Origin: Planctomycetota bacterium
Lineage (GTDB): Bacteria; Planctomycetota; Phycisphaerae; SM23-33
Assembly (NCBI GenBank): GCA_026693065.1
Contig: JAPLNA010000230.1
Location: 2,726 to 59,624 of the forward strand
DNA: 56,899 nt
Reading direction: 5' to 3'
The notes beneath the pieces are model-generated. The model was not told where the DNA came from. It did no database searches and saw nothing but the letters and a program-made list of their open reading frames with translations. Shown here in pieces: positions 8,173-53,215 of this stretch. Within the stretch, counting starts at the first letter, position 1; every line of letters begins with the position of its first letter. Made by a program: the position numbers and the translations under genes.

Positions 8173-8256
8173 GGAACTGGGAACTGGGAACTGGGAACTG
8201 AGATCTGAAATCCAAAATCTGAGATCTGAGATCTGAGAACCCGGAATCGGGAATCG
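8173..8256 (+). repeat. Array of 12 in-register heptamers
   Basis: GGAACTG x4, AGATCTG, AAATCCA, AAATCTG, AGATCTG x2, AGAACCC, GGAATCG x2; starts just after the GH130 stop. Confidence 0.9.
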
Positions 8257-8358
8257 CGAACGAACCGCATCTGTCGGACTGCTCGCTTCAGCGAGGCAGT
8301 TCCCCGTCGTATCGACCCCCGCGGAGCGACACGTAGAAGATAGGGAAACGTTTTGTCG

Positions 8359-9384
8359 ATGTCCGGAACCGCGATAGAATCATCGAAACGGCCCACGATG
8401 GTCGTGGTCGCAAGGCCATCTGGGAGACCCTTGCTAAAGGGCGGGATCTTTCGCGAAAGGCGGTGGCATACGCCCTCGGCTAGAGACCTGCTCGAACGCG
8501 GACGGCTTTCGGAGCAGCCAATGGGAGTTAGCGTCTGGAGCGACCATGAGTTGCCCGCCGCGTTGGCGTGGGGCATGTCCAGCGATGACCCCAAAGTGTG
8601 GTGGGACGCCTACCGGTCTCTTGTGGCACTGGAGGTGGAATGCCCCGCGGGATATACGCCGTCGTGGCGAACGTCACTGGATGAGGCCGAAACGATCTGT
8701 AGAGCGGTATTCCGCAAACCGACAACCCTCAAGAGCCCGTATGCCGATTCGCCCTTTGGATCCGTAGACCTTTGGCCCCACCGTTTCATCTTTCTCACGG
8801 CCATGCCTTATGGGTCGGAACTGGCGTATCGTCTTCGAAAAGACGTCGCCGCCCTCGCCGAAGGCCCCCATGATGAGAAACTCCGTGTCCTGGCCATCAA
8901 TACCTTAGATGGCCTGGGCTGGAGGGGGCGAGACTGTCTTCCGGCGCTCCAGAAGGCCGCCGCCGATACGAACGGGTGGGTGGCTTCACAAGCAAAGGAT
9001 GCGATCCGTAACATTACGGCTTCGAAGCCATCGCCCTCGACGGACGCAGAGGAAGGCCCGCTCGAACTGCTCGACCGGCACCTGGGCAATCTCAACGGCA
9101 ATGAAAAGGAGCAGTTCTTGCGTGCGATCGGCAAGCAGGGCGTCCTCCAGACCGTCAGAGACCTGCAATACCCGAGTATCGTATGGTATGCCTATGTTGG
9201 CGCGTGCGGCCCCTATCACACCCCCCAGGGCCCCATGACCGACGCTGAATACCTTAAGTACGTCGAACAAACCTGCAGGATCACGGAAAGGCTCCGCGGG
9301 ATAGCAGGCAACACGAGCCCCGTCATCCAGGCCAAGCCCGAGAGCAGGCCCCGGCCGCAGAACTCGCCCGTCCCCTCGCCATAA
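8359..9384 (+). CDS. Hypothetical protein with a HEAT-like repeat; start uncertain
   Basis: Long ORF in visibly lower-GC DNA; LRVLAINTLDGLG..CLPALQKAAADTNGWVASQAKDAIRNI resembles a HEAT repeat. Confidence 0.55.
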   Translation: MSGTAIESSKRPTMVVVARPSGRPLLKGGIFRERRWHTPSARDLLERGRLSEQPMGVSVWSDHELPAALAWGMSSDDPKVWWDAYRSLVALEVECPAGYTPSWRTSLDEAETICRAVFRKPTTLKSPYADSPFGSVDLWPHRFIFLTAMPYGSELAYRLRKDVAALAEGPHDEKLRVLAINTLDGLGWRGRDCLPALQKAAADTNGWVASQAKDAIRNITASKPSPSTDAEEGPLELLDRHLGNLNGNEKEQFLRAIGKQGVLQTVRDLQYPSIVWYAYVGACGPYHTPQGPMTDAEYLKYVEQTCRITERLRGIAGNTSPVIQAKPESRPRPQNSPVPSP

Positions 9385-9526
9385 CCCCGCCGGTGAAAGC
9401 GGCAACCCAGCAAAGGGATCGGGGGAGGATCGTGGGACGCAAGACTTGACTCGGGCTTCTGGCGGGGGGATTCGCTACTAGGGTCCGGTCGTCCAACTAC
9501 CTCCCCACATTTCCCCCGGAATCCCC

Positions 9527-9555
9527 TTGACTGGACACCTGGTAGTTCGTATACT
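9527..9555 (+). promoter_or_regulatory. Near-consensus sigma70 promoter with no adjacent CDS
   Basis: TTGACT (9527-9532), 17-nt spacer, TATACT (9550-9555). Confidence 0.6.
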
Positions 9556-9756
9556 GTTAGGGTGACAGCCGGCGTCTCGCTGAGGATGCGCCGGGGGTTT
9601 TTGGCCCAGAGCGCCCAGGCGGCGGGATTGGGCGGAAGGAACGGACGGTCGGGGGCCGGAGAGGAATTGCTGCGCCGAAGGCGGACCGATTTTCAATTGA
9701 AGAGAGAGCAGGCGTGCCGACGGAATTGCTTGTCAATTTCCCGCCTTCGGCGGGCC

Positions 9757-9855
9757 AAGTATCCCTTAAGTATCCCTTGAGTATCCCTTAAGTATCCCTT
9801 GAGTATCCTTTAAGTATCCCTTGAGTATCCCTTGAGTATCCCGGAAGCATCCTCT
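9757..9855 (+). repeat. AT-rich 11-bp tandem repeat (RAGTATCCCTT), about 8 copies plus 1 degenerate
   Basis: Units start at 9757, 9768, 9779, 9790, 9801, 9812, 9823, 9834 and 9845, with no spacers. Confidence 0.95.
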
Positions 9856-10234
9856 TTTCGGGGGGTTCGAGGGGGCGAGAAAACGGCAACGGTCTGATGG
9901 GACAAGGGTTACGGATCGGGAAGGGGAAACGATACGCGTTCGAGGGATGCTTGGGAGGACGGGCGCGGGCGGATGAGGGGGGCATCGGGGGGATTCACCC
10001 CGGCAGTCGGGGTGCCTTTGTCGAGGGGGGCGCAAGATCGGTGGTTTGCGCGGAGGGGTGGATGGAGGAGGGAAACCTCCCCCCCGCGGACGCGGGGGAG
10101 TGGGAAAATCGTGCGGGGGGCGGGATTCCGGAGGCAGGGGACGCATAGGATGGGATGATCGGCGCCAGGCCGGACGCGGAAATGTGGCGGCGCCGGCTGG
10201 GAAGCGGACAGACGAGTGAGAAGGAGAAAGAAGC

Positions 10235-11617
10235 ATGTTTTTTCGACAGTTCAAGGTTGAAGGGCTGGGGTGCTATTCGTATCTGATCGGATGCCCGGCG
10301 GCGGCCGTCGCGTGCGTGGTCGATCCGGAACGGCACGTGGGGCAGTATCTGGAGGCCGCCCAGGCCAACGGGATGCAGATCACCGACGTGATCGATACGC
10401 ATCTGCACGCCGACCACATCACGGGCAGCGCGGAGTTGGCGGCCCGGACGGGGGCGACGGTGCACGTGCACCCGGGCGTGCAGGCGGCGTATCCGCACAA
10501 GCCCCTGAAGGACGGCCAGCGGCTGCGGTTCGGCACGGCGGAGCTCGAGGTGATCGAGACCCCCGGGCACACCCCCAATTCCGTCTCGCTGGCGCTGACC
10601 GACCACGCCCGCTCGGGGGACGTCATGGCGATCCTCACGGGCGACCTGTTATTCGTGGGCGAGATCGGGCGGCCGGACCTGGCCGGGGCGGACCTGCTCG
10701 AGCAGCAGGTGCAGAACCTGTACGACAGCCTGTACAAGAAACTCGCCCGGTTCCCGGACTGGACGGAGGTGTACCCGGCGCACGGCGAGGGTTCGCTGTG
10801 CGGGCGGGGCATGAGCGCCAAGCCGATGACCACGCTGGGATTCGAACGCCGACACAACCCGCTGCTCAAGGCCATGCCGTTCGAGGATTTCCGCAGCGTG
10901 ATGACGGGCGGGTTCCAAATGCGTCCGCCGAACTTCGCGGCGATCGTGGAGACCAATCGCCGCGGGCCCGCCCTGCTGAGCCAGGGGCCCGCCTTCACCG
11001 CCCTCTCGACGGGGGAGGTGGAACTGGCGGTGCGGAACGGCGCTCGGCTGGTGGACGTTCGGCCCCAGACGGCCTTCGGGGCGGCTTTCGTGCCCGGGGC
11101 CATCAACATCGGCGGGGCGCCCAGCTCCGTCAACTGGCTGGGGATGGTGGTGGAGTCGCGGTCGGACATCATCATCGTGGCCGACAGCGAAGCCCTCGCC
11201 CGCAAGGCCGCCCTCCGCTTCCGCCGGGCCGGGTACGACCGGCTGATCGGGTTCCTCCCCGACGGCGTGGCCGGGTGGGCCAGCCGGGGCAAGCCGCTGG
11301 ACCACCTGCCCCAACTGACCCCCGCGGGCCTGAAGCACGTGCTGGAGAAATACTCCGACCACGTGGTGCTGGACGTGCGGACGACCCCCGAGTGGCAGGC
11401 CGGGCACATCGAGGGCGCCGTGCACAAACCGCTCTCCGACCTGATCGCCGGCGAGTTGGACGTGGACAAGGACACCCACGTCACCGCCGTCTGCGGGTCG
11501 GGCTACCGCTCGAACATCGCGGGCAGCGTGCTGAAGTCGCGGGGGTACGCCCAGGTATTCAGCCTGATCGGCGGCATGACGGCCTGGAACGCCTTCCGCC
11601 GCACCGGCGGGGCGTGA
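10235..11617 (+). CDS. MBL-fold hydrolase with two rhodanese domains (persulfide dioxygenase-sulfurtransferase fusion-like)
   Basis: THLHADH, PGHTP, TGDLLF, PAHGEGSLCG; C-terminal rhodanese with DVR..EW..GHI and active-site CGSGYRS. Confidence 0.9.
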   Translation: MFFRQFKVEGLGCYSYLIGCPAAAVACVVDPERHVGQYLEAAQANGMQITDVIDTHLHADHITGSAELAARTGATVHVHPGVQAAYPHKPLKDGQRLRFGTAELEVIETPGHTPNSVSLALTDHARSGDVMAILTGDLLFVGEIGRPDLAGADLLEQQVQNLYDSLYKKLARFPDWTEVYPAHGEGSLCGRGMSAKPMTTLGFERRHNPLLKAMPFEDFRSVMTGGFQMRPPNFAAIVETNRRGPALLSQGPAFTALSTGEVELAVRNGARLVDVRPQTAFGAAFVPGAINIGGAPSSVNWLGMVVESRSDIIIVADSEALARKAALRFRRAGYDRLIGFLPDGVAGWASRGKPLDHLPQLTPAGLKHVLEKYSDHVVLDVRTTPEWQAGHIEGAVHKPLSDLIAGELDVDKDTHVTAVCGSGYRSNIAGSVLKSRGYAQVFSLIGGMTAWNAFRRTGGA

Positions 11618-11646
11618 GGGAAAGCGCCTGTCGCACTGGCCCCGGC

Positions 11647-11675
11647 TTGACCGTCGCGGCGGCCGCTTCGATAAT
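11647..11675 (+). promoter_or_regulatory. Putative sigma70 promoter
   Basis: TTGACC-N17-GATAAT upstream of ATG 11741. Confidence 0.5.
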
Positions 11676-11740
11676 GTGGGCGCTCACGGTCGGTGAGGCG
11701 CGGGACGGCGCAAGAACAACTGCAAGCGGAAGGCAAAGCC

Positions 11741-12583: not shown

Positions 12584-12618
12584 ACCGAAGCCGGTTCTGG
12601 CCCCTCGTTCTCGCTGGA

Positions 12619-13173: not shown

Positions 13174-13221
13174 GACCCCATTACACCAATTTCCCCCGGC
13201 CAGGTCAAAGCAAACTCCCGG

Positions 13222-13239
13222 GCCGCTTGCGGCTTCGCG
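13222..13239 (+). repeat. 18-bp intergenic REP-like motif, copy 1
   Basis: GCCGCTTGCGGCTTCGCG; its exact reverse complement occurs at 42014-42031. Confidence 0.6.
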
Positions 13240-16160: not shown

Positions 16161-16201
16161 CGCCCCTGACGCCCACCCGCCGCAATCGATACCCCTGCCC
16201 C

Positions 16202-16287
16202 GGGTGCCATGCTTCTACGCGCTGCGGAGAAGCATGCGGGCCGATCGCGGGACATGCTTCTCCGCTGCGCGTAGAAGCATGGCACCC
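16202..16287. repeat. REPIN-like doublet: two inverted 35-bp palindromic units
   Basis: 16202-16236 and 16253-16287 are reverse complements with 1 mismatch; each unit has an internal CATGCTTCT..AGAAGCATG hairpin; lies between convergent genes. Confidence 0.85.
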
Positions 16288-26040: not shown

Positions 26041-26068
26041 GTAGCCGGTAGCCAGTAGCCGGTAGCCG
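26041..26068 (+). repeat. Heptamer tandem repeat GTAGCC(G/A) x4
   Basis: GTAGCCG GTAGCCA GTAGCCG GTAGCCG downstream of pyk. Confidence 0.8.
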
Positions 26069-26106
26069 GGGGAACCGCGAACCGCCCTCGGAGAATGTGG
26101 GTCTTC

Positions 26107-34173: not shown

Positions 34174-34327
34174 GTCCACGGATTACGCGGATTGCACGGA
34201 TTGAGAAGAAGAAACAAGCGGACGAGCCGTCCATGAATGGCACGAACGTCACGCATGGGAAACGAGAAATGGAGAACCGCTTCTGCTTTCCCTCTTTTCA
34301 ATCCGTGGAATCCGAGTAATCTGTGGA
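34174..34327. repeat. Inverted arms of 9-nt-periodic CACGGATT repeats around a short spacer
   Basis: Left TCCACGGATTACGCGGATTGCACGGATTGAGAAGA versus the reverse complement of the right arm ending at 34327: 4 mismatches in 35 nt. Confidence 0.85.
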
Positions 34328-35336: not shown

Positions 35337-35363
35337 TCCGTGCAATCCGTGTAATCCGTGGAC
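35337..35363 (-). repeat. Lone right arm of the CACGGATT family
   Basis: Reverse complement matches 34174-34200 at 26/27 positions. Confidence 0.85.
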
Positions 35364-35424
35364 AGAACTTCTTCGCCATCCGCGCGGCGTGGCCGTCGAG
35401 CTTGGCGTATAATGCCGCTCTACC

Positions 35425-40452: not shown

Positions 40453-40465
40453 AGGGACATCTTCT

Positions 40466-40495
40466 TCTCTGCGTTCTCGGCGTTCTCGGCGGTTA
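40466..40495 (-). repeat. Lone arm of a 9-nt-periodic repeat (CGTTCTCGG)
   Basis: TCTCTGCGTTCTCGGCGTTCTCGGCGGTTA just past the GH4 stop. Confidence 0.7.
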
Positions 40496-41950: not shown

Positions 41951-42013
41951 GGTGGTGGTCCTTTCGTGGGGAGCGAGGGAACGAGGGGATAGTATAACGG
42001 GAAGGAGAGCCCT

Positions 42014-42031
42014 CGCGAAGCCGCAAGCGGC
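42014..42031 (-). repeat. 18-bp intergenic REP-like motif, copy 2
   Basis: CGCGAAGCCGCAAGCGGC, the reverse complement of 13222-13239. Confidence 0.6.
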
Positions 42032-42054
42032 TTGGGGAAGGGGATGGGAGCGGA

Positions 42055-43425
42055 TCAGTGAGGCATGACCAGGTATTGGAGGATGAACAGGGCAGCGAGA
42101 ATGTAAACGGCGAGGGGGCACTGGCGCGGGCGGGCGGTCAGAAGTTTCAGGGCGGCGTAACTGATGAAGCCGATGGCGATGCCCGCGGCGATCGAGTAGC
42201 CGAAGGGCATCATGACCATGGTGAGGAAGGCGGGGAGGGCTTCGGTGACGTCGTCCCAGGGGATGTCGCGGAGGGATCGCATCATCATGGCCCCGACGAG
42301 GATCAGGGCCGGGGCGATCGTCGGGTAGGCCAGCCCCTTGCCCACGGGGATTCCCGCCCCGACCATGCCCACCAGCGGCTGGAAAAACAGGGCGGCGACC
42401 AGGCACAACCCGGTGACGATAGTGGCCAGACCCGTGCGGGCGCCGGCCGTCACGCCCGCGGCCGACTCGATGTAGCACGTGACGGTGCTCGTGCCCAGGG
42501 CGGCCCCGACGACGGTGCCGGCGGCGTCCGCGGCGAGGGCGCGTTCGGCCCGGAGGAGCCGCCCATCCCGCATCAGCCCCGCTCGCTGCCCCACCCCCAC
42601 CAGCGTGCCGACTGTGTCGAAGACGGCCATGAACAGAAGCACGAAGCCCAGGATCACCACGTTGAGGGAGTCTTTGCTGAGAAGCTTGTCCCACAGTCCG
42701 GCAAAGCCGGCGAGCAGACCGCCGGCGGTGGCCTCCAGCCCGTGCGGCGTGCCGACGGGATACCGCCACGCGACGGCGGGCACGTGCCAGATCTGCCCGG
42801 CCGCCCAGGCCGCGGCGGTGGTGAAGAGGATGCCCAGCAGGATGGCCCCCGGCACGCGGTAGGCCACCAGGGCGCCCGTGACGGCCAGGCCCAGCAGGGC
42901 CAGCCCCGCCACGTAGTTGCCCGGCATGGGCGCCAGCGTGACGCTGGTGGCTGGGCTGGCGACAACGACGTTGGCGTACTGGAGCCCGATGAGCGTGATG
43001 AACAGCCCGATGCCCGCGGTGATGCCGGTCTTCAGGCTCGCGGGGATGGCCGCCAGGATCTTCGAGCGGAATTCCACCAGCGACAACGCCAGGAACACCA
43101 CGCCCACGACGGCCGTCAGCGCCAGGGCCTCCTGCCAGGAGAGCTTGAAGCTCCCCCCTGCCACGCCGCACAGGGTGAACACGAAGAAGAAGTTCTCGCC
43201 CATACCCGGGGCCAGGGCGACGGGGTAATTGGCCAGCAGGCCCATGAGGAAGCACGCGGCGGCCGAGGACAGGCAGGTGGCCATAAAAACCCCGCCGCGG
43301 TCCATGCCCGCCAGGGCCAGCACCTCCGGCTGGACGAAGAGGATGTAGCTCATCGCCATGAAGGTGGTCAGCCCGCCGATGACCTCGCGGTGAACCGAAC
43401 TGCCGCTTTCGCGAATGCCGAACAT
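42055..43425 (-). CDS. NCS2-family nucleobase permease (AzgA/PbuG-like)
   Basis: EVIGGLTTFMAMSYILFVQP, ANYPVALAPGMG, FDTVGTL, YIESAAGVTAGARTG. Confidence 0.92.
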   Translation of the reverse strand: MFGIRESGSSVHREVIGGLTTFMAMSYILFVQPEVLALAGMDRGGVFMATCLSSAAACFLMGLLANYPVALAPGMGENFFFVFTLCGVAGGSFKLSWQEALALTAVVGVVFLALSLVEFRSKILAAIPASLKTGITAGIGLFITLIGLQYANVVVASPATSVTLAPMPGNYVAGLALLGLAVTGALVAYRVPGAILLGILFTTAAAWAAGQIWHVPAVAWRYPVGTPHGLEATAGGLLAGFAGLWDKLLSKDSLNVVILGFVLLFMAVFDTVGTLVGVGQRAGLMRDGRLLRAERALAADAAGTVVGAALGTSTVTCYIESAAGVTAGARTGLATIVTGLCLVAALFFQPLVGMVGAGIPVGKGLAYPTIAPALILVGAMMMRSLRDIPWDDVTEALPAFLTMVMMPFGYSIAAGIAIGFISYAALKLLTARPRQCPLAVYILAALFILQYLVMPH

Positions 43426-43497
43426 GCCGTTTCTCCCACGGACAAACGTGTCGGAACGCCTACATCCGTATTGTAGAGCCCGCGGCGAGACGGGGCT

Positions 43498-43974
43498 TCA
43501 TTTCTTGCCCATCGCCCGCTGCTTGCGGAAGAACTCGGTGAGCAGGTCGCCACACTCCCGCGCCCGGACGCCCGCGACGACGTCGACCTGGTGGTTGAGG
43601 CGGGGGTCGTTGCACAGGCGATACAGCGTATCGACGGCGCCGGCCTTCGGGTCGGCGGCGCCGTAGACCACGCGTTCGATCCGCGCCAGCACGATCGCCC
43701 CGGCGCACATGCAGCACGGTTCGAGCGTGACGACGAGCGTGCAGCCTTCCAGCCGCCAGTCGCCCAGGGCGGCCGCGGCGGCGCGAATCGCCAGCAGCTC
43801 GGCGTGCGCGGTCGGGTCGGCGTCGATGATCCGCCGGTTGTGCGCCCGGGCGACGACAAGGCCCTCCCGTGCGATCACGGCGCCGATGGGCACGTCGCCG
43901 GCGGCCTCGGCCGCGGCCGCTTCTTCGAGGGCGGCGGACATCCAGGTGTCGTGTTGTTGTTCGATGATCGTCAT
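43498..43974 (-). CDS. tadA: tRNA adenosine(34) deaminase
   Basis: VPIGAV, DPTAHAE, TLEPCCMCAGA, YGAADPKAG, LNH, FFR. Confidence 0.92.
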   Translation of the reverse strand: MTIIEQQHDTWMSAALEEAAAAEAAGDVPIGAVIAREGLVVARAHNRRIIDADPTAHAELLAIRAAAAALGDWRLEGCTLVVTLEPCCMCAGAIVLARIERVVYGAADPKAGAVDTLYRLCNDPRLNHQVDVVAGVRARECGDLLTEFFRKQRAMGKK

Positions 43975-43996
43975 GCCGATGGGCCGCGGAGGCGAC

Positions 43997-44166
43997 AAAT
44001 CCGAAATTCGAAGCACGAAATCCGAAACAAATCCAAAACGGAAAAACTCAAATGTCCAAAACACCGGAAGGAATCCCTGCGCCGGCGGATGTCCTTGTGT
44101 AGTTTCGGATTTCGGTCATTTGAGTTTGGGTATTGTTTCGAGTTTCGGATTTCGTGCTTCGGATTT
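43997..44166. repeat. Inverted arms of 7-nt-periodic AAATCCG/AAGCACG repeats
   Basis: Perfect 20-bp inverted repeat 44009-44028/44142-44161 plus inner 11-bp pair AAACTCAAATG/CATTTGAGTTT. Confidence 0.88.
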
Positions 44167-44180
44167 GGCTCTCCGAGCCG

Positions 44181-45863
44181 TCACTTCCTCGCCTCGTTGC
44201 GGATCGTCAGCAGATCCTTCATTACGTTATGCAGGTTGCCCTTCGCCGTCGTCGTGCCCAGGGCGTCGTGCAGTTGGCGGTAGAGGGCGTAGAGTCTGGC
44301 GTAGACCTTGTGGGCGGCCCGGTTGGGTTTGTAGGCCTTGGGCTTGAGGGCGCTCATGGCCTTCTGGGCGGCGGCGAAGGTGGCATGCCCGCCGGCCTTC
44401 TTGCCCGCGGCGACCGCCCCGGCCATCGCCGAACCCAACGCACACGTCTGGGACGACCGCGAGATCTTCATCGGGCGGCCGGTCACGTCGGCGTAGATCT
44501 GCATCAGCAGCGGGTTCTTCTCGGCGATGCCGCCGGCGGTGACAACCTGGCGGACCTTCACGCCGTATTCCTCGAAGCGGTTGATGATCGTCAGCGCCCC
44601 GAAGGCCGTCGCCTCGATCAGGGCGCGGTAGATCTCCGCCGGCGTGGTGTAAAGCGTCTGCCCGAGCAGCAGCCCGGTGAGCCGCTGGTCGACAAGGATC
44701 GTGCGGTTGCCGTTGTTCCAGTCGAGGGCGAGCAGCCCGCTCTCGCCGGGTGCGAGTTTGGCGGCGCCGGCCGTCAGGGCCTCGTGTGTGCCGGCCTTGC
44801 CGCCGGGCTGAATGTAGTTCACGAACCAGTTGAAGATATCCCCCACAGCCGACTGGCCCGCCTCCAGCCCGAAGTAGCCCGGCAGGATGCTCTCGGGCAC
44901 GATGCCGCACAGCCCGGGCACGTCGGGCAGGGCCTGGGCGAGCGGGGCCACCATCATGTCGCACCCGCTCGTGCCGATGATTTTTACCAGCGTGCCCGGG
45001 GCGATTCCCGCGCCGACGGCGCCGAGGTGGGCGTCGAAGGCCCCAACGGCGACCGGGATGCCCGCGGCCAGGCCGGTGCGCCGGGCCCACTGGTCCGTCA
45101 GCCCGCCCACGGAGCGGTCGATGGCGTGGGCCTTGTCTTTGAGCCGCCCGCGGAGTGCGCCCAGTTCCGGATCGAGGGCGGAGAGAAACTCCGCGTCGGG
45201 GTAGCCACCCCACTGGTCGTGGTACATCGCCTTGTGCCCGGCGGCGCAGACGCAGACGGTGAGTTTGTCGGGCGCCTCCGTGCCCGTCAGGGCCGCGGGA
45301 ATCCAGTCGGCGATCTCCACCCACGTGTACGCCGCCCGGAACACGCGCGGGCTGGTCCGCAGGCAGTGCAGCAGTTTGCTGAAGAACCACTCGCTGCTGT
45401 ACGTGCCGCCGCACTTGGCGAGGTACTGCGGGCGGGTGGTGCGGGCCAGGGCGGTGATCTCCGAAGCCTCGGCGACGCCGGTGTGGTCCTTCCATAGCCA
45501 GGCCATCGCGGCGGGGTCTTTGGCGAAGGGCTTCTTGAACGCCAGGGGCACGCCGGCCTTGTCCACGGGCAGCGGGGTCGAGCCGGTGGTGTCCACGCCG
45601 ATGCCGATGACGTCGGCGGGCTTGAAGCCCTTGACGGCCTTGCGCGCCGCGGCGAGGACCTGGCCGATGGTGGTTTCGGCCCCTTTGAGGTAGTCGGCCG
45701 GGTGCTGGCGGGCGAGGTTGGGGTCTCGTGAGAGGATCACGCCCTGTCGCCCGTGGGCGTAGGTCCAGACGGCGGTGGCCACTTCGCGGCCGTCGGCGAC
45801 GTCGACGAGCAGCGCCCGCACCGAGTTTGTCCCGTAATCCAGCCCGATCGTATATTTGGCCAT
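44181..45863 (-). CDS. araB: L-ribulokinase
   Basis: IGLDYGTNSVRA, RQHPADY, GVDTTGSTPLP, WKDHT, YSSEWF, AAGHK, GLEAGQSAVGDIF, LDWNNGNR, EATAFG. Confidence 0.92.
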   Translation of the reverse strand: MAKYTIGLDYGTNSVRALLVDVADGREVATAVWTYAHGRQGVILSRDPNLARQHPADYLKGAETTIGQVLAAARKAVKGFKPADVIGIGVDTTGSTPLPVDKAGVPLAFKKPFAKDPAAMAWLWKDHTGVAEASEITALARTTRPQYLAKCGGTYSSEWFFSKLLHCLRTSPRVFRAAYTWVEIADWIPAALTGTEAPDKLTVCVCAAGHKAMYHDQWGGYPDAEFLSALDPELGALRGRLKDKAHAIDRSVGGLTDQWARRTGLAAGIPVAVGAFDAHLGAVGAGIAPGTLVKIIGTSGCDMMVAPLAQALPDVPGLCGIVPESILPGYFGLEAGQSAVGDIFNWFVNYIQPGGKAGTHEALTAGAAKLAPGESGLLALDWNNGNRTILVDQRLTGLLLGQTLYTTPAEIYRALIEATAFGALTIINRFEEYGVKVRQVVTAGGIAEKNPLLMQIYADVTGRPMKISRSSQTCALGSAMAGAVAAGKKAGGHATFAAAQKAMSALKPKAYKPNRAAHKVYARLYALYRQLHDALGTTTAKGNLHNVMKDLLTIRNEARK

Positions 45864-45933
45864 GTGGCGACTCCTTCCGGAATGGTTCGGCCGGTGAGTC
45901 TAAGCGAAGGCAGCACTGTGAACAAGAGGGCGA

Positions 45934-46119
45934 GGGGGAACCACGAAGGACACGAAGACCACGAAGGACACAAAGGACAGCAAGACGGAAAGAGAAGGGC
46001 CGGGAGAACGGAAGAAGGAGCAAGCACCTCGGGTGAGTCGAAAGCCTTTGCGGCTCTTTGTTCTATTTCCCGCTGCTCTTTGTGCTCTTTGTGTTCTTTG
46101 TGTTCTTCGTGGTTCCCCC
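45934..46119. repeat. Inverted arms of 9-nt-periodic CACRAAG repeats, copy 1
   Basis: GGGGGAACCACGAAGGACACGAAGACCACGAAGGACACAAAG ... CTTTGTGCTCTTTGTGTTCTTTGTGTTCTTCGTGGTTCCCCC. Confidence 0.88.
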
Positions 46120-46256
46120 CACGTCGCATGGCCGCGGATCACGACCACCGCGAGAGGGCGAATGGGCTTGACTTGAGCGGCGATTGCGGATACCAGCAAC
46201 GGAACGAAGAAAGCGTCCGGCGGACCGGACGGGCGTATTTCAAGAGGAGTCTGACA

Positions 46257-47804
46257 GTGGCTATCAAAGTGGCGTTCATCGGGGCCGGCAGCGTGGGGTT
46301 CACGCGCGGGCTGTTCCGCGACATACTGGCCGTGCCCGAGTTGAAGGACACGCAGTTCGGTTTCACGGACATCAACAAGCGGAACCTGGACATGGTGACC
46401 GCCCTGTGCCGGAAGGATATCCGCGAGAACAAGCTGCCGGCGACGATCGACGCGACGACCAATCGCCTCAAGGTCCTCGAGGGGGCCGACTACGTCATCA
46501 ACTGCACCCGCATCGGCGGGCTGGAGGCCTTCAAGCTCGATATCGACATTCCGCTCAAGTACGGCGTGGACCAGTGCGTGGGCGACACGCTGTGCGCCGG
46601 CGGGATCATGTACGGCCAGCGGAATATCCCCTGCGTGCTGGATTTCTGCCACGACATCCGCGAGGTCGCCAACGAGAACGCCCTGTTCCTGAACTACGCC
46701 AACCCCAACGCGATGAACACCTGGGCGGCCAATCACTTCGGCGGCGTGCCGACGATCGGGCTCTGCCACGGCGTGATGGGCGGGCACTGGCAGATCGCCA
46801 CGGTGATCGAGTTGCTCGTCAACAAGGGCAAGAAGCCCGGCAGGCCCGGCTACACGAAGGTCTCGACCAGGGACGTCGACATCATCTGCGCCGGCATCAA
46901 TCACCAGACGTGGTACGTCCAGGTGATCTACAAGGGCGAAGACTGGTGCGACCGCCTGCTGGAAGGCTTCCAGAAGCACCCGGAGTATTCGAAGACCGAG
47001 AAGGTCCGCATCGACATGCTCAAGCGGTTCGGCTACTACAGCACCGAATCCAACGGGCACCTGTCGGAGTACGTGCCCTGGTATCGCAAGCGGACGAAGG
47101 AGATCAAGAACTGGATCGACCTGGGCTGCTGGATCAACGGCGAGACGGGCGGGTATCTCCGCGTGTGCACGGAGGGGCGTAACTGGTTCGAGACGGACTT
47201 CGACAACTGGCTGAAGGCCGACGTGCCGCCGATCTCGCCCCAGCACCGCGGCGGGGAGCACGGCAGTTACATCATCGAGGGGCTCGAGACCGGGAAGGTC
47301 TACCGCGGGCACTTCAACGTGCCCAATAACGGGTGCATCACCAACCTGCCCGACGACGCCATCGTCGAAGTGCCCGGGTACGTCGACCGCAACGGGGTGA
47401 GCATCCCGAAGGTGGGCGACCTGCCGTTGGGCTGTGCGGCCGTGTGCAGCGCGTCGATCCACGTGCAGCGGCTGGCCGTCGAGGCGGCTGTGTACGGCGA
47501 CGTCGACCTGCTCAAGCAGGCGATGATGATGGACCCCCTCGTCGGGGCCGTCTGCGACCCCAACGAGATCTCCCAGATGACCGACGAGATGCTCGTCGCC
47601 CAGGCCAAGTGGCTGCCGCAGTACCGCGGCGAGATTGCCAAGGCCGCCAAGAGGCTTGCGAGCGAGAAGCGGCTGGGGACGAAGGGCACGAAGGGCGTGG
47701 CGAGGCTGCACACCAAGACGGTGACGGAGATGAAGAAGGACCGGGCGGCGGCCCGGCGAATCGCCGCCGCCTCGGACAAGGCGAATCTGGCGAAGAAGAA
47801 GTAA
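46257..47804 (+). CDS. melA: GH4 alpha-galactosidase (second MelA-like paralogue)
   Basis: GAGGAG RBS, GTG start; KVAFIGAGS, PLKYGVDQCVGDT, NYANP, GLCHGV, GINHQ, TESNGHLSEY. Confidence 0.9.
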   Translation: MAIKVAFIGAGSVGFTRGLFRDILAVPELKDTQFGFTDINKRNLDMVTALCRKDIRENKLPATIDATTNRLKVLEGADYVINCTRIGGLEAFKLDIDIPLKYGVDQCVGDTLCAGGIMYGQRNIPCVLDFCHDIREVANENALFLNYANPNAMNTWAANHFGGVPTIGLCHGVMGGHWQIATVIELLVNKGKKPGRPGYTKVSTRDVDIICAGINHQTWYVQVIYKGEDWCDRLLEGFQKHPEYSKTEKVRIDMLKRFGYYSTESNGHLSEYVPWYRKRTKEIKNWIDLGCWINGETGGYLRVCTEGRNWFETDFDNWLKADVPPISPQHRGGEHGSYIIEGLETGKVYRGHFNVPNNGCITNLPDDAIVEVPGYVDRNGVSIPKVGDLPLGCAAVCSASIHVQRLAVEAAVYGDVDLLKQAMMMDPLVGAVCDPNEISQMTDEMLVAQAKWLPQYRGEIAKAAKRLASEKRLGTKGTKGVARLHTKTVTEMKKDRAAARRIAAASDKANLAKKK

Positions 47805-47808
47805 AACC

Positions 47809-47904
47809 TACCGGTTTACCGATTACCGATTACTGGTTACTGATTACGCGTCACAGTCTGACGATCGCGTAACCCGTAATCAGTAACCAGTAATTCGTTA
47901 ACCG
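47809..47904. repeat. Inverted arms of 7-nt-periodic TTAC(C/T)G(A/G) repeats
   Basis: Perfect 20-bp inverted repeat 47829-47848/47875-47894 between convergent genes. Confidence 0.88.
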
Positions 47905-47912
47905 ATGCTTCT

Positions 47913-49004
47913 TCAGTACGTCCCCATCTCCAGCCCGCGGTCGCGGAAGAAGCGGTAGGTCTTGTAGTCCACGCTCTGGGGGATGCTGTGGTCGGAGTGC
48001 AGGATGTACCCGCCGCCGGCCATCGCGATGGGGAGCTTGGCGTCCAGCTCGGCCTGGACGATCGCCAGGTCGTTGGTCTCGAGCTTTCGCACGTCCATGC
48101 CGCCACAGAAGGAGATGCGGTCGCCGTAGGCTTTCTTGAGCCGCACGAGATCCATGCCGGCCTTGGTTTCGATGGCCTGAAGGCAGTCCATGCCCGCCTC
48201 GATCAGCCCGGGCACGAGGGGCTCGACGAACCCGCAGGAGTGCACCACGATGGGCACGTTGTGACGCTTGGCGACGGCGAAGGTCTTCTTGTGGGCCGGC
48301 AGGATGAACTCGTTGTACATCGCCGGCGACATGAAGGGGCGTTCCTTGAAGCCCATGTCCTCGTAGAACCACATGATGTCCGGCGTGCCGCCCTCGGAGA
48401 ACATGATCTCGAGGCAGGCGGCGATCATGTCGCCGAAGACGTGGCACATGTCGTGGACCCACTCCGGTTCGGCGATCATGCCCATGAGCATGTGCTCGTG
48501 CCCGCAGAGCGGGTGCATGCACTCGAATACATTAATGCTCATGCACTTGTAGCATTTGCCGTCGGCCTCGCAGGAGACCCGGGTGTTCTTGCACCAGTCG
48601 ACGGTGCTCCGCCGGCGGTACAGCGACGTATCCGCCAGGAACGGCCGGGCGTGCTCCTCCCACGAGCGGCGGTCCTTGACGGTGAAGTCCACGTGCTCGG
48701 GCGTGCCGCTGCGCCCCTTCCACCACCGCAGCTTCGCCCCGTTGCCGTCGAGCACGAGTTTGTGCTCGTCGTTCTCCTCGATGACCTGGTCTTTCCAGTC
48801 CAGGTTGGCCGTGGGGGTGACCCACCCGGCCTCGCGGGCGTCGAGGGCGAAGTGGCGTTCCGGGTCTTCCTCGGCCCCCAGGTGCCCTTCCTTGCGCCAC
48901 CGCACGAGCGTGTCGGGCCAGAAGCCCTCGAGCACCCCGATCCGGTCGACGCTCTGGCGGCGGACGATCCGCGGGATCCGCTCTTTGCTTGTCATGGCAG
49001 CCAT
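47913..49004 (-). CDS. Uroporphyrinogen decarboxylase/MtaA-CmuA methyltransferase superfamily protein
   Basis: MTSKERI, EDMGFK..PFMSP, VHSCG, LIEAGMD, GMDL..LKKAYGDRISFCGG.D, GGGYILHSDHSIP. Confidence 0.85.
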   Translation of the reverse strand: MAAMTSKERIPRIVRRQSVDRIGVLEGFWPDTLVRWRKEGHLGAEEDPERHFALDAREAGWVTPTANLDWKDQVIEENDEHKLVLDGNGAKLRWWKGRSGTPEHVDFTVKDRRSWEEHARPFLADTSLYRRRSTVDWCKNTRVSCEADGKCYKCMSINVFECMHPLCGHEHMLMGMIAEPEWVHDMCHVFGDMIAACLEIMFSEGGTPDIMWFYEDMGFKERPFMSPAMYNEFILPAHKKTFAVAKRHNVPIVVHSCGFVEPLVPGLIEAGMDCLQAIETKAGMDLVRLKKAYGDRISFCGGMDVRKLETNDLAIVQAELDAKLPIAMAGGGYILHSDHSIPQSVDYKTYRFFRDRGLEMGTY

Positions 49005-49026
49005 GAATTGCTCCTCGGTAATGAAC

Positions 49027-50121
49027 TCAAACGATTTCCAACGCGTTGCGGTCGCCCAGCGCGGGGAACGGGGCCGCCGGAAGCGTCTGATACCAGTACG
49101 CCACCGAGCACAGGTCGTGCTGCCCGGGGTAGTACCGCCCCTCCGTCCGCCAGCCCAGGGCCTGGATCCGCACGCGGAGGTCCTTCCCGAACCGCACCGG
49201 GTCCATCACGTGCCAGCGGTACATGCCGTGGCGGTGCTGGCTCTGGTACGTGCCGTCGGGGCGGTGGACGTAGTGCATGCCCATGAAGGCCGTCGAATAC
49301 TCGACGTACTTGCCGTTGACGTCCCAGTTGTACGAGCCGCCGAAGTAATCCTCCGTGCCCGTGCCGCAGATCGTCGGGAACTCGCCGTCGCCGTCGATGA
49401 AGAACTTGATCTCGCCCTCGCCGAACCAGCCGCTGTTGTTGACCCCCCACCCCATCACCGTGCCGACGTAATGCCCGCGCCCCTTCACGCCGTCCAGGAT
49501 CACGTACTCCTGGGCGTACGGCAGCGGATTCACGCGGCGGAACTGGGCGTGGAAGTACGCGCAGTCGTCCGGCACGCTCGTGAGGGTGTAGTTGATCTGG
49601 TGGAAGCACCCCCCGACGGCCGTCGGGTGGCGGTTCTCGACCGTCACGCGGCAGCTCTTGCGGAAGGGCATCTCCCAGAAACAGTTCAGCCCCGCGCGGG
49701 GGTTGACCGCCACGGGCAGGCTGTTGACGGGACAGTAGGGCCAGCCCATGCACTGCGTCGACCAGGGCATGGCGAAGAAGTCCGAGATGGGGACCTCGAC
49801 GGACGGAGCGGCCTGGCCGTCCCAGTAGATCCGCAGGATGAAGTCGCGGCTGACCACGCTGCCGGCGAACCACATGCTCTGAATCGCCCCGGGCCCTTCA
49901 ATGTCCGCCAGTGTCACCGTCTGTCCGGGAGCAACATCGTGACAGGGCCTGCATTTCCAGCCTCGCCCGAGCTCCCGCGCCGGGCCGTTCGGGTCCGCCG
50001 GCGCCATCGCCCCGGCCCCCTTCCCGCCCGTGGGGTTCTCGGCGGAAATGCTCCGCGTCTGGGCGGAGGACAGGCGCGACAGGTTACCGAGGGACATTCC
50101 CAGGCCGTTGAATTCTGACAT
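49027..50121 (-). CDS. DUF2961 / GH172-family protein
   Basis: TRSISAENPTGGKG, LRIYWDG..PSVEVP..DFF, NCFWEMPF, YFHAQFRR, WFGEGEIKFFIDGD, ICGTGTEDYF. Confidence 0.9.
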   Translation of the reverse strand: MSEFNGLGMSLGNLSRLSSAQTRSISAENPTGGKGAGAMAPADPNGPARELGRGWKCRPCHDVAPGQTVTLADIEGPGAIQSMWFAGSVVSRDFILRIYWDGQAAPSVEVPISDFFAMPWSTQCMGWPYCPVNSLPVAVNPRAGLNCFWEMPFRKSCRVTVENRHPTAVGGCFHQINYTLTSVPDDCAYFHAQFRRVNPLPYAQEYVILDGVKGRGHYVGTVMGWGVNNSGWFGEGEIKFFIDGDGEFPTICGTGTEDYFGGSYNWDVNGKYVEYSTAFMGMHYVHRPDGTYQSQHRHGMYRWHVMDPVRFGKDLRVRIQALGWRTEGRYYPGQHDLCSVAYWYQTLPAAPFPALGDRNALEIV

Positions 50122-50163
50122 CGTCGTGACTCCAAAGGAGTGTTATAGGTTAGGGGCGGCAAG

Positions 50164-50344
50164 GGGAACCACGAAGCACACAAAGGTCACGAAGATCACA
50201 AAGGGCGGAAGAAGAGGGACGAGAAGGCATCGCGGCCGAAACAGCAAAGCGCCCGGGCGGTGTCTTTCTTCCATTCCTCATCATTCTCTTCTTTTCTTTC
50301 CGTCCTTCGTGTTCTTCGTGATCTTTGTGTGCTTCGTGGTTCCC
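50164..50344. repeat. Inverted arms of 9-nt-periodic CACRAAG repeats, copy 2
   Basis: The first 22 bp (GGGAACCACGAAGCACACAAAG) are perfectly inverted at the right end; about 41-bp arms with 3 mismatches. Confidence 0.9.
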
Positions 50345-50367
50345 TGGCCGCCGGATTCCAAAAAGCC

Positions 50368-52917
50368 CTATTTCTTGACAGTCACCGTCAGACTCTTGCC
50401 CGCGGGAATCGTCTTGAGGTCACCGAGGCACTTGCAGCCGACGCCGGCCAGCTCGAAGCAGCCCAGGGCCACCTGCCCGCCCAGGACGGCGAGCTTGGCG
50501 GTGAAGCCGCCCTTGGCCTTGGCGATGGTGCACGTGCCCCACGCGTAGCCGTTGGACCAGAAGTGCTCGCCCGGCACGGCGGCGAAGGACATGCTCTTGT
50601 CCACGCCGGAATACCGGAAGCCCGTCAGGGTCGGAATCGCCGCCCAGGCCGCCATCGCGCGGGCGTAGTGGTGCCCGCACTCGGCCTCGTTGAACGGGTT
50701 CCGCCGCCAGCCGTCGTACCGGTCGCGGATATTGCGAATGCACTCGAGCCCGGCGGCGGTCTGCCCTTCCTGCAACATGCCGATCGCCGCGGCGTACTCG
50801 AAGCCCGTCATCACCTCGGTGAAGTACGGGAACGGGTTCCGCGGGCGGTCCTTGGGGTAGGCCGCCATCAGCAGGGCCTTCTCCTGGCCCACCACGAAAC
50901 TCCGCATGCAGTTGAAGTGCCCCGTGAAGTCCGTCCGGTAGTTGTACTTCATGATCGCCTTGTACGTCTTGGCGACGTTCTCGGGTTTGACGAGATAGCC
51001 CAGCCCGGCCACGTGGGCCAGGTACTGCCCCACGAGCTGATCGACCAAACACGCGGCCCCGAGCTGGTAGTCGGCGTTCTTCGGGTCGCCGGGGGTCCAT
51101 TTGCCCAGCGCCAGCCCGGGAGCGATCTCCCCGGCCGGGGCCTGGATCTTGTGCTCGTAGAACTCGCCGTTGAAGAGGTTCTCGTCGAGCCACTTACTGC
51201 CCCGCTCGAAGAGCCCGCGGCAGGTGGCGGCGAATTCGGCGTCGCCCATGGCCTTGGCCATTTCCTCGCCTGCCCGCAACGCGCCCAGATACCACACGCC
51301 CATCTGCCCGTTCGGGCCGTAGTATTCCACATCCATCGTGTTGTGCTGGCAGCCTTCCATCACGCCGTCCTGGTCGGCGTCCCACCCGCCGGGCACCCAG
51401 CAGAAGGCCAGGGCCTTCTTCACGTTGGGCCAGAGCCGCTCCAGCGTCGCCGTGTCGCCCGAGAGCTGCCAATCGCGGTACATCTTGATCAGGCAGCCCA
51501 TCTGCCCGTCCGCGGCGGCGAGTTGGCTCTCCTTGGCGCGGTCGAGGGGCAGTTTCGCGCGGAAGCTCATGTACCCGTTCTCGTGCGTGGCATAGGCGAA
51601 CTCGACGTCGCGCATGCTCATCGCCAGGTCGCCGAACAGGAACGCGGCCGTGTTCTCGTAGTTCCATACGTGGGTGCACGAACCCTCGCAGCACCCGCAC
51701 GTGTCGCCGCAGCCCTCCCAGCCGAACAGGTGGCCGTCAGGCGTGCGGAAGCAGGTCTGCGTCCTCAGCGTGGACAGGTTGGCCAGGGCGGCGTCCTTGA
51801 CCTCCAGGGGCAGCTTGGCGTCGCAGACCGCCCGGACGAACTGGACGGTGCGGGCCTCCAGGGCCGGAAGCTCGCCCGCGACCCGCTCGGCCACCGCCCA
51901 GGCGTCGGCATACTGCGTGCAGTAGTGGTTACCGATCCAGTCGCTGGGCTCCAGGCAGGTCTTCTTGGTGTCGCCGCAGCAATTCTCCTTCGTCCGGGGC
52001 CACCAGTTGTAGCGGTTGGGGAAGTGCCACGTGATCAGGAACGTGACTTCCTTGACGGCCTTGGGGGGCAGTTTGATCTCGACGGCCAGCGAGGCCACGG
52101 GCAGCTTCTGGCCCGGTGCGGCGGTGCGGGGTTCGAGCCTGCCGTCGGCGCTGAAGTCGTCCCAGAAGTCCAGAGCGCTCGTGCCCCACCCCGCCGGCAG
52201 CCAGGCCGTCCGATGCGTCAGGGCGCCCCTGGTGGTCGTCGTCAGGGCCATCGTGCCCCAGGCCGGCGTGGTCTGGTCGGCCGCCGCCGACGTCATGGAA
52301 ATGCCGCGAACGGCCGCGCCCTCGCGGTAGGCGTTGGCGTTGCCCTCGACCATCGAGTGTGTGCCGTCGGACCCGATGAAGTTGGGCATCACGCCGCACA
52401 CCGACGCCGTCACGGGCTTGTTCGTGCGGTTGGTGACGACGTACCGGAGAATCGCCACCGGGATGCTGCTGACGGCGGCGTCGGTCGGAACGAGCGGGTT
52501 GAATGCCTGCAACGTGACGGAGACGGGCATGGCCGGGTCGCTCAGGAACACCTGCCCCAGCGGATACGCGGCGGCAAAGGAACACTTGGCGAACCGCGGC
52601 AGGCCGTGGTTGGGCACCGGGCAGCCGTTGTCGCCGTAGTCGGCGGTGTCGATGGGGCCCATGAGCGCCCTGGTGACGGCCTCGCCGCCGGCGGGCTTGG
52701 CGTAGATGGCAAAGAACGCCGCGTGCACGCCGTCGCCGCCGGGCGTGAAACCCTTGGCCGGTCGGTTGGCGATTTCCCAGTCCCTGAAATGGCCCAGCCC
52801 GCCCAGGCTCACCGTCCCGGTCCCGATCCCGCCCAGGGGCAGCGCCAGCCGCCGCAGGTGCGCCTGGTCGTATCGCTTCAGTATCGGCCATTCGTTCCGC
52901 TTGTTCGTTTTCGCCAT
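50368..52917 (-). CDS. GH116-family glycoside hydrolase (non-lysosomal glucosylceramidase-like)
   Basis: PLGGIGTG, WEI.NRP, WEGC..CCEGSCTHVWNY, AADGQ, QHNTMDVE, DQLVGQ, EVMTGFEY, NPFNEAECGHHYARAM. Confidence 0.9.
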   Translation of the reverse strand: MAKTNKRNEWPILKRYDQAHLRRLALPLGGIGTGTVSLGGLGHFRDWEIANRPAKGFTPGGDGVHAAFFAIYAKPAGGEAVTRALMGPIDTADYGDNGCPVPNHGLPRFAKCSFAAAYPLGQVFLSDPAMPVSVTLQAFNPLVPTDAAVSSIPVAILRYVVTNRTNKPVTASVCGVMPNFIGSDGTHSMVEGNANAYREGAAVRGISMTSAAADQTTPAWGTMALTTTTRGALTHRTAWLPAGWGTSALDFWDDFSADGRLEPRTAAPGQKLPVASLAVEIKLPPKAVKEVTFLITWHFPNRYNWWPRTKENCCGDTKKTCLEPSDWIGNHYCTQYADAWAVAERVAGELPALEARTVQFVRAVCDAKLPLEVKDAALANLSTLRTQTCFRTPDGHLFGWEGCGDTCGCCEGSCTHVWNYENTAAFLFGDLAMSMRDVEFAYATHENGYMSFRAKLPLDRAKESQLAAADGQMGCLIKMYRDWQLSGDTATLERLWPNVKKALAFCWVPGGWDADQDGVMEGCQHNTMDVEYYGPNGQMGVWYLGALRAGEEMAKAMGDAEFAATCRGLFERGSKWLDENLFNGEFYEHKIQAPAGEIAPGLALGKWTPGDPKNADYQLGAACLVDQLVGQYLAHVAGLGYLVKPENVAKTYKAIMKYNYRTDFTGHFNCMRSFVVGQEKALLMAAYPKDRPRNPFPYFTEVMTGFEYAAAIGMLQEGQTAAGLECIRNIRDRYDGWRRNPFNEAECGHHYARAMAAWAAIPTLTGFRYSGVDKSMSFAAVPGEHFWSNGYAWGTCTIAKAKGGFTAKLAVLGGQVALGCFELAGVGCKCLGDLKTIPAGKSLTVTVKK

Positions 52918-53059
52918 GGCTGTCCGTTCCTTTTCTCGCGGGGGTTTCTCTGTGCGACAGAAGCACCTTTCATACCTTTTCGCGTGCAAATGTCCATGGA
53001 ATTCCCGCCCCGCGCCCATGGTCGGAAAGCGGGCCGGTGGCGGCTGGGCGAGTGAGACT

Positions 53060-53215
53060 GGGATTAGGGGATTCAAAGGGATGGGAGGACAAAGAGATTG
53101 GGAGAGAAACACCCGGGATACAGAATCTCAGATCCAAGATCTCAGATCCGAGATTCCAGAAGACCTCTCCCAATCCATTTATCCTAATCCCCCAATCCAG
53201 AAATCCCCTAATCCC
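53060..53215. repeat. Inverted GGGATT/AATCCC arms with a nested heptamer array
   Basis: GGGATTAGGGGATT ... AATCCCCTAATCCC; inner pair GATTGGGAGAG/CTCTCCCAATC; nested AATCTCA GATCCAA GATCTCA GATCCGA GATTCCA. Confidence 0.8.

Follow-up and report, generated by a model that had tools for sequence, protein, structure and literature searches.

The DNA considered here, called the window below, is a stretch of 56,899 nucleotides (positions 2,726 to 59,624 of contig JAPLNA010000230.1; C230:2726-59624) from a metagenome-assembled genome of a planctomycetotal bacterium (GCA_026693065.1, here G000; 5.68 Mb, 441 contigs, 66% GC), and its subject is a series of intergenic arrays of short tandem repeats, several of which form the paired inverted arms of long hairpins. 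The genes around them are ordinary ones of sugar metabolism and housekeeping (FGGY kinase, GH4, URO-D-like, DUF2961, GH116, NfeD, deaminase and permease), and the GH4 gene has its closest relatives in Phycisphaerae/Planctomycetota bins. The window elements are probably cargo-less or half-deleted members of a family of hairpin mini-cassettes that also includes the intervening sequences (IVSs) of 23S rRNA genes. The cassette is widespread and little studied, and elsewhere it carries one of two small genes.

An original prediction, made from the letters of the window, had listed ten such arrays, and Tandem Repeats Finder recovered all of them at or near the places given (8173, 26041, 34177/34300, 35337, 40465, 43997/44136, 45942/46074, 47816/47876, 50170/50305 and 53125/53169), although the list was not full, an eleventh array lying at 9757-9842. 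The predicted period of 7 or 9 nt held for most arrays and failed for the outer arms at 53054-53221, which are built of 8-nt units. All of the elements, none of which is assigned a strand here, are intergenic, and they do lie between co-directional, divergent and convergent genes alike, as had been noted. The five clean arm pairs and the nested one were found again by an inverted-repeat scan, and each of the six paired elements folds into one long hairpin, with a minimum free energy (MFE) of -38 to -108 kcal/mol and a z-score of -6.6 to -13.2 in comparison with 100 dinucleotide shuffles; the four arrays described as lone arms have no hairpin partner (z -2.5 to +0.8). A scan of the window with Rfam models at the gathering threshold gave 0 matches.

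Among the paired elements, 34174-34327 (9-nt units CACGGATT+N; arms 34175-34214 and 34288-34327; MFE -81.8, z -10.6) begins 17 nt past a stop at 34157 between co-directional genes on the + strand and belongs to a family with 6 paired copies in the genome that have common termini. A solo array of the 3'-arm type of this family, at 35337-35365, ends in the family terminus ...GTGGAC, with the left arm missing, and forms no hairpin (z -0.75). The element at 43997-44166, with arms of ~60 nt (paired at 43996-44044 and 44119-44167; MFE -71.7, z -6.7), separates a tadA-like from an araB-like gene, both read from the - strand, and is one of the AAATCCG family, which has 8 paired copies. Units of CACGAAG+NN, 9 nt long, build both 45934-46119 (arms 45934-46002 and 46051-46119; MFE -101.1, z -8.8), between the divergent araB-like (-) and GH4 (+) genes, and 50164-50344 (arms 50164-50210 and 50298-50344, 91% complementary; MFE -108.1, z -13.2), between the co-directional (-) DUF2961 and GH116 genes. 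The hairpin at 47809-47904 (7-nt units TTACCGA/TTACTGA; arms 47829-47854 and 47869-47894; MFE -38.2, z -7.2) starts 5 nt past the GH4 stop between convergent genes. The nested hairpin at 53054-53221, between divergent genes (MFE -78.1, z -6.6), has outer arms of the GGGATTA/GGGGATT family (53054-53073 and 53202-53221) and an inner second stem (53086-53106 and 53165-53185) around a core array of ATCTCAG-type heptamers at 53125-53160; its outer family has 17 paired copies, some of which likewise nest the ATCTCAG-type heptamer family.

Three further lone arrays follow stop codons. The composite array at 8173-8238, four GGAACTG and then six CTGAGAT-type units, begins 9 nt past the stop of a + gene ending at 8164 and has no hairpin partner (z -2.5). 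Four GTAGCCG units at 26041-26069 lie 38 nt past a stop at 26003 (z +0.7) and represent the most abundant heptamer family of the genome, with 49 arrays, and the same unit type occurs beside a four-helix-bundle gene in another genome (G011, locus L205). The 9-nt array at 40465-40491, 26 nt past the stop of a - gene at 40517, reads CGCCGAGAA / CGCAGAGAA on the - strand, and its unit matches the CGCAGAG/CGCCGAG units of cassette arms around GxxExxY genes in relatives.

Over the whole genome, where a crude self-trained gene caller gave 4168 genes and left 19% of the sequence non-coding, 427 period-7 arrays were found in the non-coding part and 115 in the 81% that is coding, a ~16-fold enrichment per base outside genes, and periods 8, 9, 11, 14 and 22 are likewise over-represented there. 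Arrays were called by Tandem Repeats Finder and counted as paired when an inverted partner lay <=400 nt away with a Smith-Waterman score >= 28; 247 of the 812 merged non-coding arrays had such a partner, compared with 3 of 400 random segments. After collapsing, the set comprises 161 paired elements (median length 124 nt) and 565 lone arrays. The smallest period of the paired elements is 7 in 72, 8 in 26, 9 in 57, 10 in 2 and 18 in 4, and their arms are AT-richer, as had been observed in the window (51% GC vs 66% for the genome). They fall into at least 58 unit families, each with characteristic non-periodic termini and with centres that mostly differ, and ~90 different heptamer and 198 nonamer units occur in this one genome. 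Of the 146 paired elements whose gap could be classified, 94 stand between tandem, 29 between convergent and 23 between divergent genes, those in tandem gaps starting at a median of 23 nt past the upstream stop. The more purine-rich arm is the 5' arm in 140 of 160 paired elements (one tie omitted; p = 2e-23), a polarity that holds on both strands because the structure is palindromic. Lone arrays have no bias of orientation relative to genes (91 vs 108, p = 0.26).

The original prediction had also associated similar arms with GxxExxY and four-helix-bundle genes in related genomes, and this was borne out both in the genome itself and in its relatives. A blind search for inverted partners at distances of 0.4-5 kb succeeded for 15 of the 565 lone arrays, giving 11 loci, four of which enclose small open reading frames (ORFs) of TIGR02436/PF05635 (four-helix bundle, S23p/Avd-like) or TIGR04256/PF13366 (GxxExxY); the remaining genes found between arms are ordinary host genes, and none is a transposase. 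G000 has three PF05635 and two PF13366 genes in total (contigs C22, C145, C371, C403 and C350), all five beside periodic arms: the three PF05635 genes and one PF13366 gene lie between both arms, and the second PF13366 gene, on C350, has a left arm and then the contig end. The arm families of these filled cassettes (CACGAAG+NN, GGGGATTA, GAGATTT, GATTGCC and GGTTAGA) also occur in many empty hairpins, and three of them, namely CACGAAG+NN (C403), GGGGATTA (C350) and GAGATTT (C371), are the families found at 45934, 50164, 53054, 53125 and 8198 of the window. In particular, 45934-46119 and the GxxExxY cassette on C403 have one arm family in common, the GGGATTA/GGGGATT outer family of 53054-53221 also forms the arm to the left of the C350 GxxExxY gene, and the CTGAGAT/GAGATTT units of 8173-8238 are those of the four-helix-bundle cassette on C371. 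Since a PF05635/PF13366 search of contig C230 gave no match, the window copies are empty. The proposal that they are empty forms thus agrees with the families that they have in common with filled cassettes of the same genome and with truncated cargo found inside intact arms elsewhere (in 2 of 6 fragment loci examined).

The same arrangement was found in other genomes of the same family, order and class, each represented by one locus, its best match. PF05635 is present in 37 and PF13366 in 29 of the 41 relatives searched (counts that include G000). Inverted periodic arms flank 24 of 29 four-helix-bundle loci (arm score >= 27) compared with 2 of 54 controls, and 27 of 28 testable GxxExxY loci (arm score >= 28) compared with 1 of 55 controls, so that the arms are strongly tied to these two families. 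Arm type goes with cargo class: the best period of four-helix-bundle arms is 7 in 20 loci, 8 in 3 and 9 in 1, and that of GxxExxY arms is 9 in 18, 8 in 3, 10 in 3 and 6, 7 or 11 in one each (7 vs 9, 20:1 vs 1:18; Fisher p = 4.6e-9). GxxExxY arms have one unit type, C-R-C-N-R-A-G followed by two variable bases, across genera and orders, whereas the heptamers beside four-helix-bundle genes vary by locus and often start with AGG. The motif C[AG]C[ACG][AG]A[GT] occurs three or more times at 27 of 29 GxxExxY loci (199 hits vs 39 antisense) and at 5 of 30 four-helix-bundle loci (46 vs 40 antisense). A scan for the nonamer pattern (C-R-C-N-R-A-G+NN) by itself detected it in 44 of 301 sampled Planctomycetota genomes, equally often in forward and reverse orientation, and the reversed-pattern control was almost empty. 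After nine loci near contig ends had been removed by hand, the cargo gene was co-directional with the upstream gene at 45 of 51 loci, against a genome baseline of 0.69 (p = 0.0012).

Concerning the two proteins, the four-helix bundle matches solved relatives in sequence (2rld and 2gsc), and a sequence search of solved structures with GxxExxY gave no match. In 24 GxxExxY proteins G26, E29, Y32, D68, E78 and K80 are invariant, and the active site, intact and conserved across orders, fits an active enzyme. The AlphaFold model (pLDDT 96) returned weak fold matches of the Cas4 and lambda-exonuclease type of PD-(D/E)XK protein (best E = 1.4e-3, TM 0.57), which weakly suggest a nuclease and nothing finer.

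Comparison with relatives indicates that the elements come and go. Among 165 related loci in genome and metagenome collections, one metagenome contig (L106) alone keeps the gene order of the window, being collinear with 41362-49485 at ~87-90% nucleotide identity, and three junctions could be compared. The tadA/araB junction is 38 nt long in this relative vs 225 nt in the window, so that element 43997-44166 is absent there; at the araB/GH4 junction an orthologous CACGAAG+NN element is present, its left arm one unit shorter (3 instead of 4) and its apex different; and at the GH4/URO-D junction the place of the TTACCGA hairpin of the window (47809-47904) is taken by a conventional hairpin, preceded by an A-tract and followed by a T-tract. 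A four-helix-bundle cassette of one genome (G030) is represented by the right arm alone at the orthologous site of a congeneric genome (G027). The presence/absence differences between relatives that the original prediction had proposed to look for at such junctions thus exist, both as one empty junction out of three and as a filled site vs a solo arm. Near-duplicate loci differ by whole units, in one-unit indels. Gain and loss between relatives, slippage of unit number and truncated intermediates are therefore all observed.

Several side observations concern the same loci. A xanthine/uracil-type permease gene at 42055-43425, beside the element-rich stretch, is missing in L106, and because 22 nt join the flanking genes there, the difference is a whole-gene indel. 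Two elements of G000 (C121:3592-3733 and C150:12877-13025) are ~92-95% identical including their flanks and differ by one 8-nt unit, so that the bin (contamination 3.6%) would contain either a recently duplicated segment or a mixture of two strains. Sequencing-run contigs found at 85% likeness were mostly other copies of arm families, and in a more distant strain (X8) the alignment stops at element borders. At L201 (G030:C10, ~1389-1425), compared with L265 (G027:C44), a cassette arm apparently runs in frame through the first codons of the neighbouring gene and adds ~8 codons, according to the reading of start codons alone.

The link to IVSs comes from the literature and from plasmids. In Coxiella, tandem GACAGAT heptamers, in 2 or 3 copies according to strain, precede the S23p ORF of the IVS, RNase III was shown experimentally to cut at the start of the first repeat, and the origin and function of IVSs are described as still unclear (PMC4990558). 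Searching plasmid proteins gave four-helix-bundle genes mainly in Cyanobacteria, and eight loci were examined, 7 of them cyanobacterial. On an Azospirillum lipoferum plasmid a four-helix-bundle ORF lies inside 23S rRNA sequence with GAGGACG-type heptamer arms on both sides, which is the full periodic-arm build of the cassettes. Among the 7 loci from Cyanobacteria, 4 have clear heptamer inverted arms (Anabaena, Geminocystis, Nostoc punctiforme and Picosynechococcus). The Geminocystis gene follows an ATPase gene, and the other three lie within operons, between cas6 and cas4, between cas10 and cmr3, or between co-directional hypothetical genes. The arrays of the Calothrix, Nostoc PCC 7120 and Pseudanabaena loci are heptameric and not simply complementary. 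The elements are thus spread over Planctomycetota, Cyanobacteria and one alphaproteobacterial rRNA gene.

Four-helix-bundle genes in cas loci were taken by an earlier survey as possibly CRISPR-related, and our results suggest that those inside cas operons are inserted cassettes and not Cas components. On cyanobacterial plasmids (L248, L251 and L253) such genes lie between cas6/cas4 or cas10/cmr3 with heptamer arrays on both sides. At the Pseudanabaena locus (L251), ~15 AAAAGCT units upstream and ~10 AAAAGCC units downstream of the gene are in direct and not inverted orientation, with an inverse unit further upstream, a layout more complex than a simple hairpin.

The likeness of the cassettes to the IVSs of Coxiella and Leptospira, as described in the available portion of PMC4990558, covers the long stem formed by complementary termini, the PF05635 ORF family, the purine-rich tandem heptamers on the 5' side with strain-variable number, the coexistence of empty and ORF-bearing forms, and the sporadic occurrence. 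The six paired window elements have the long complementary stem. They are not inserted in a 23S helix (9, 25 or 45) but are intergenic, and they have no S23p-family ORF in the window, filled copies of the same families lying elsewhere in the genome. They also differ from IVSs, which sit in rRNA helices, in following protein genes and in reaching hundreds per genome, and in having a second cargo class, GxxExxY, with a 9-nt arm type of its own; the periodic-arm rule and the purine polarity are not given as general features in that portion of the IVS account (PMC4990558). In a literature search that covered few subscription journals, no description of periodic-arm cassettes outside rRNA genes, no periodic-arm rule and no link between GxxExxY and repeats were found. 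The proposal of an undescribed system therefore stands for the cassettes outside rRNA genes, for which no description was found, but not for the kind of element, which is that of the 23S rRNA IVS.

Given these results, a complete cassette consists, in order, of a purine-rich 5' arm of 3-6 imperfect tandem units, a purine-rich inner extension resembling a Shine-Dalgarno sequence, one small gene and the reverse-complement arm, with two cargo classes: Avd/S23p-like four-helix bundles with variable 7-nt units, and GxxExxY PD-(D/E)XK nucleases mostly with C-R-C-N-R-A-G+NN. Cassettes would be promoter-less and transcribed by read-through from the upstream host gene, and RNase III, the gene for which is present in G000, could cut the long stem, as in rRNA IVSs, releasing cargo or downstream RNA from the host transcript. 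An internal deletion that removes the cargo may give rise to an empty hairpin, and the disappearance of one arm to a lone arm, and what survives could act as 3'-end or processing hairpins. Spread, the least supported step, would leave no target duplication and might proceed via the conserved nuclease. Independent 'telomerase-like' addition of repeats at both sides of a break had been considered as an origin of the arms and was set aside, because in young elements (50164-50344) the unit variants of one arm recur in mirror order in the other.

Several findings weigh against reading the window elements as remains of IVS-like cassettes. The 23S gene of G000 itself (C253) was searched and no periodic-arm insert was found in it. 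No sense/antisense asymmetry of folding energy or G-U pairs was found among the paired elements (40 vs 52, p = 0.15), so that selection for RNA of one strand is unsupported, and 23 of the 146 classified elements lie between divergent genes, where read-through from upstream is excluded. With regard to mobility, the longest direct match flanking the elements was the same as in a mixed-flank control, thus giving no target-site duplication, and none of the 7 Y1-transposase hits (PF01797; RAYT/IS200-type) had period-7/9 arm arrays within 2.5 kb. To our knowledge, neither of the two cargo proteins has been described as a transposase, and no catalytic activity is known for the four-helix bundle. The loops of most copies are unrelated. 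The whole-element near-copies inspected share their flanks too (both flanks in one pair, the left one in a second), and therefore may be duplications or strain redundancy of the bin rather than products of transposition. Contigs X1 and X4, from two studies, span three window elements, including 50164-50344, with 0 differences. The orthologous element at 45934-46119 and a GxxExxY cassette common to G027 and G030 at an orthologous site point to long-lasting vertical inheritance, which makes movement a rare event at best. The mobility proposed by the original prediction is consequently upheld in part: cargo cassettes and differences of state between relatives are there, whereas movement is inferred and no target duplication or recombinase was found.

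As a side observation on the same 23S gene, its match to the 2925-position model extends over 3032 nt and includes a 21-nt inverted pair 63 nt apart (L216 3431-3535), which could be a small non-periodic helix extension.

The main rival explanation is that the elements are home-grown 3'-end hairpins, terminators or messenger RNA stabilisers, formed in place by slippage and selection for pairing, the small genes merely lying in such gaps. This accounts for the position just past stop codons (the median of 23 nt given above), which does fit an intrinsic terminator, for a modest enrichment between convergent genes (29 of 146 elements vs 262 of 1827 gaps >= 100 nt), for the changes of unit number, and for one replacement, the ordinary terminator at the GH4/URO-D junction of L106, to which other relatives with plain or periodic hairpins after the orthologous gene can be added. 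Nevertheless, arm families with identical non-periodic termini recur at many loci, one family occurs in 44 of 301 sampled Planctomycetota genomes with its reversed control near zero, arm type tracks cargo class across genera, and elements are found in divergent gaps (45934 and 53054) and inside an rRNA gene. In the sequences read no T-run follows the stems, and with arms of 51% GC this agrees with the statement of the original prediction that the elements are not simply terminators. We therefore regard an origin in place as unlikely.

Much less probable still is that the elements are miniature inverted-repeat transposable elements (MITEs) or repetitive extragenic palindromes and their inverted pairs (REP/REPIN), mobilised in trans by the transposase of some other locus. 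The inverted termini, the large number of intergenic copies, families with conserved ends and the presence vs absence at one junction would fit, but the missing target-site duplication and the variable centres do not, and the genes between arms are limited to two small non-transposase families and ordinary host genes. The conserved interior that a MITE takes from its transposase insertion sequence is not seen, the centres being mostly unrelated and the enclosed genes not transposases. The Y1 hits, which would supply the enzyme, stand apart from period-7/9 arms, two of them (C365 and C43) having other short arrays of periods 8-11 nearby. Equally improbable is that the elements are DNA binding sites (iterons) for a multimeric regulator or partition-type protein, arrayed like the heptads that ribbon-helix-helix proteins bind on some plasmids, the inverted layout reflecting protein geometry. 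Such sites would explain 9-nt units in which 7 nt form a conserved core and 2 vary, direct repeats followed by inverted ones and the lack of strand asymmetry. However, ~90 heptamer and 198 nonamer units in one genome would call for an equal number of specificities, pairing between the arms of one element extends to the variable bases (50164-50344), and the rRNA IVS of this build is processed as RNA.

Other known systems resemble the cassettes in part. Integron cassettes are promoter-less single genes co-directional with upstream transcription, with imperfect inverted repeats conserved more in structure than in sequence, and by this general description the promoter-less co-directional single-gene unit and the imperfect inverted repeats are alike; the present cassettes differ in forming no cassette array, being singly dispersed with arms on both sides of the gene, and no integrase was linked to them, no search for intI having been made. 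Cyanobacterial STRR repeats are intergenic heptamer repeats, and the sequences examined suggest that some cyanobacterial heptamer arrays may be cassette arms. The REP/REPIN-RAYT system, as described in the available part of PMC3733652, likewise comprises abundant extragenic palindromes after genes, with inverted pairs as hairpins and no target duplication, but REPs are single palindromes of 20-40 bp with a GTAG or CGTC tag, whereas here the arms are tandem 7-9-nt units and the Y1 transposase genes of G000 are not flanked by periodic arms. The TAACTGA repeats of Beggiatoaceae are also non-coding tandem heptamers, patchy across distant phyla and suspected of an RNA role, but they are direct and lie just upstream of start codons, and no link to PF05635/PF13366 is made in the abstract of that account (PMC4679880). 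The four-helix-bundle cargo belongs to an Avd-like family, Avd being the accessory protein of diversity-generating retroelements (PMC10053308). The cassettes differ in that no reverse transcriptase was seen beside them, both reverse transcriptase genes of the genome lying elsewhere, and no template or variable repeat was seen adjoining cassettes.

Apart from these systems, the window contains features of other kinds. The eleventh array, AAGTATCCCTT in 7.8 copies with an 11-nt unit (9757-9842), follows a small GC hairpin within the long gap at 9405-10235. The motif of this hairpin, CCGCC-(GAAG/TTCG)-GGCGG, often followed by ACCGATT, occurs at 9672-9692 and 9740-9755 and recurs genome-wide beside ATTGCCG-family arrays and at many element flanks, and it looks like a separate REP-like repeat. 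The tightest palindrome of the window, at 16202-16287, is a non-periodic inverted repeat with 35-nt arms, 97% complementary, around a 16-nt loop, and is unrelated to the periodic families.

Going beyond the reading of the window elements as emptied IVS-like cassettes, our results raise the tentative possibility, which we hold to be doubtful, that hairpin mini-cassettes are selfish elements spread across phyla, of which rRNA IVSs would be the visible tip. Each of the two cargo proteins, which are unrelated to one another, might then recognise its own arms (heptamers for the four-helix bundle, CRCNRAG+NN for the nuclease) and drive copying free of target duplication, either by cleavage directed to the hairpin or cruciform followed by repair or through an RNA intermediate. 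Empty relics, hundreds in a genome, could serve as RNase III or 3'-end sites that shape operon expression, and the four-helix-bundle genes previously read as CRISPR-associated would be included among the elements.

For Planctomycetota, Verrucomicrobia relatives and Cyanobacteria, such arrays may mislead the prediction of terminators or small RNAs, and they break assemblies, 107 of the lone arrays of this genome having no called gene on one side, mostly near contig ends. How rRNA IVSs arose and move, a question open since 1990, becomes testable, as the finding supplies hundreds of copies outside rRNA genes together with a structural rule, that of periodic, purine-first arms. The two cargo classes with their matched arm types point to the cargo proteins as specificity factors, and the cassettes offer an explanation for two abundant families hitherto called 'hypothetical', PF05635 and PF13366.

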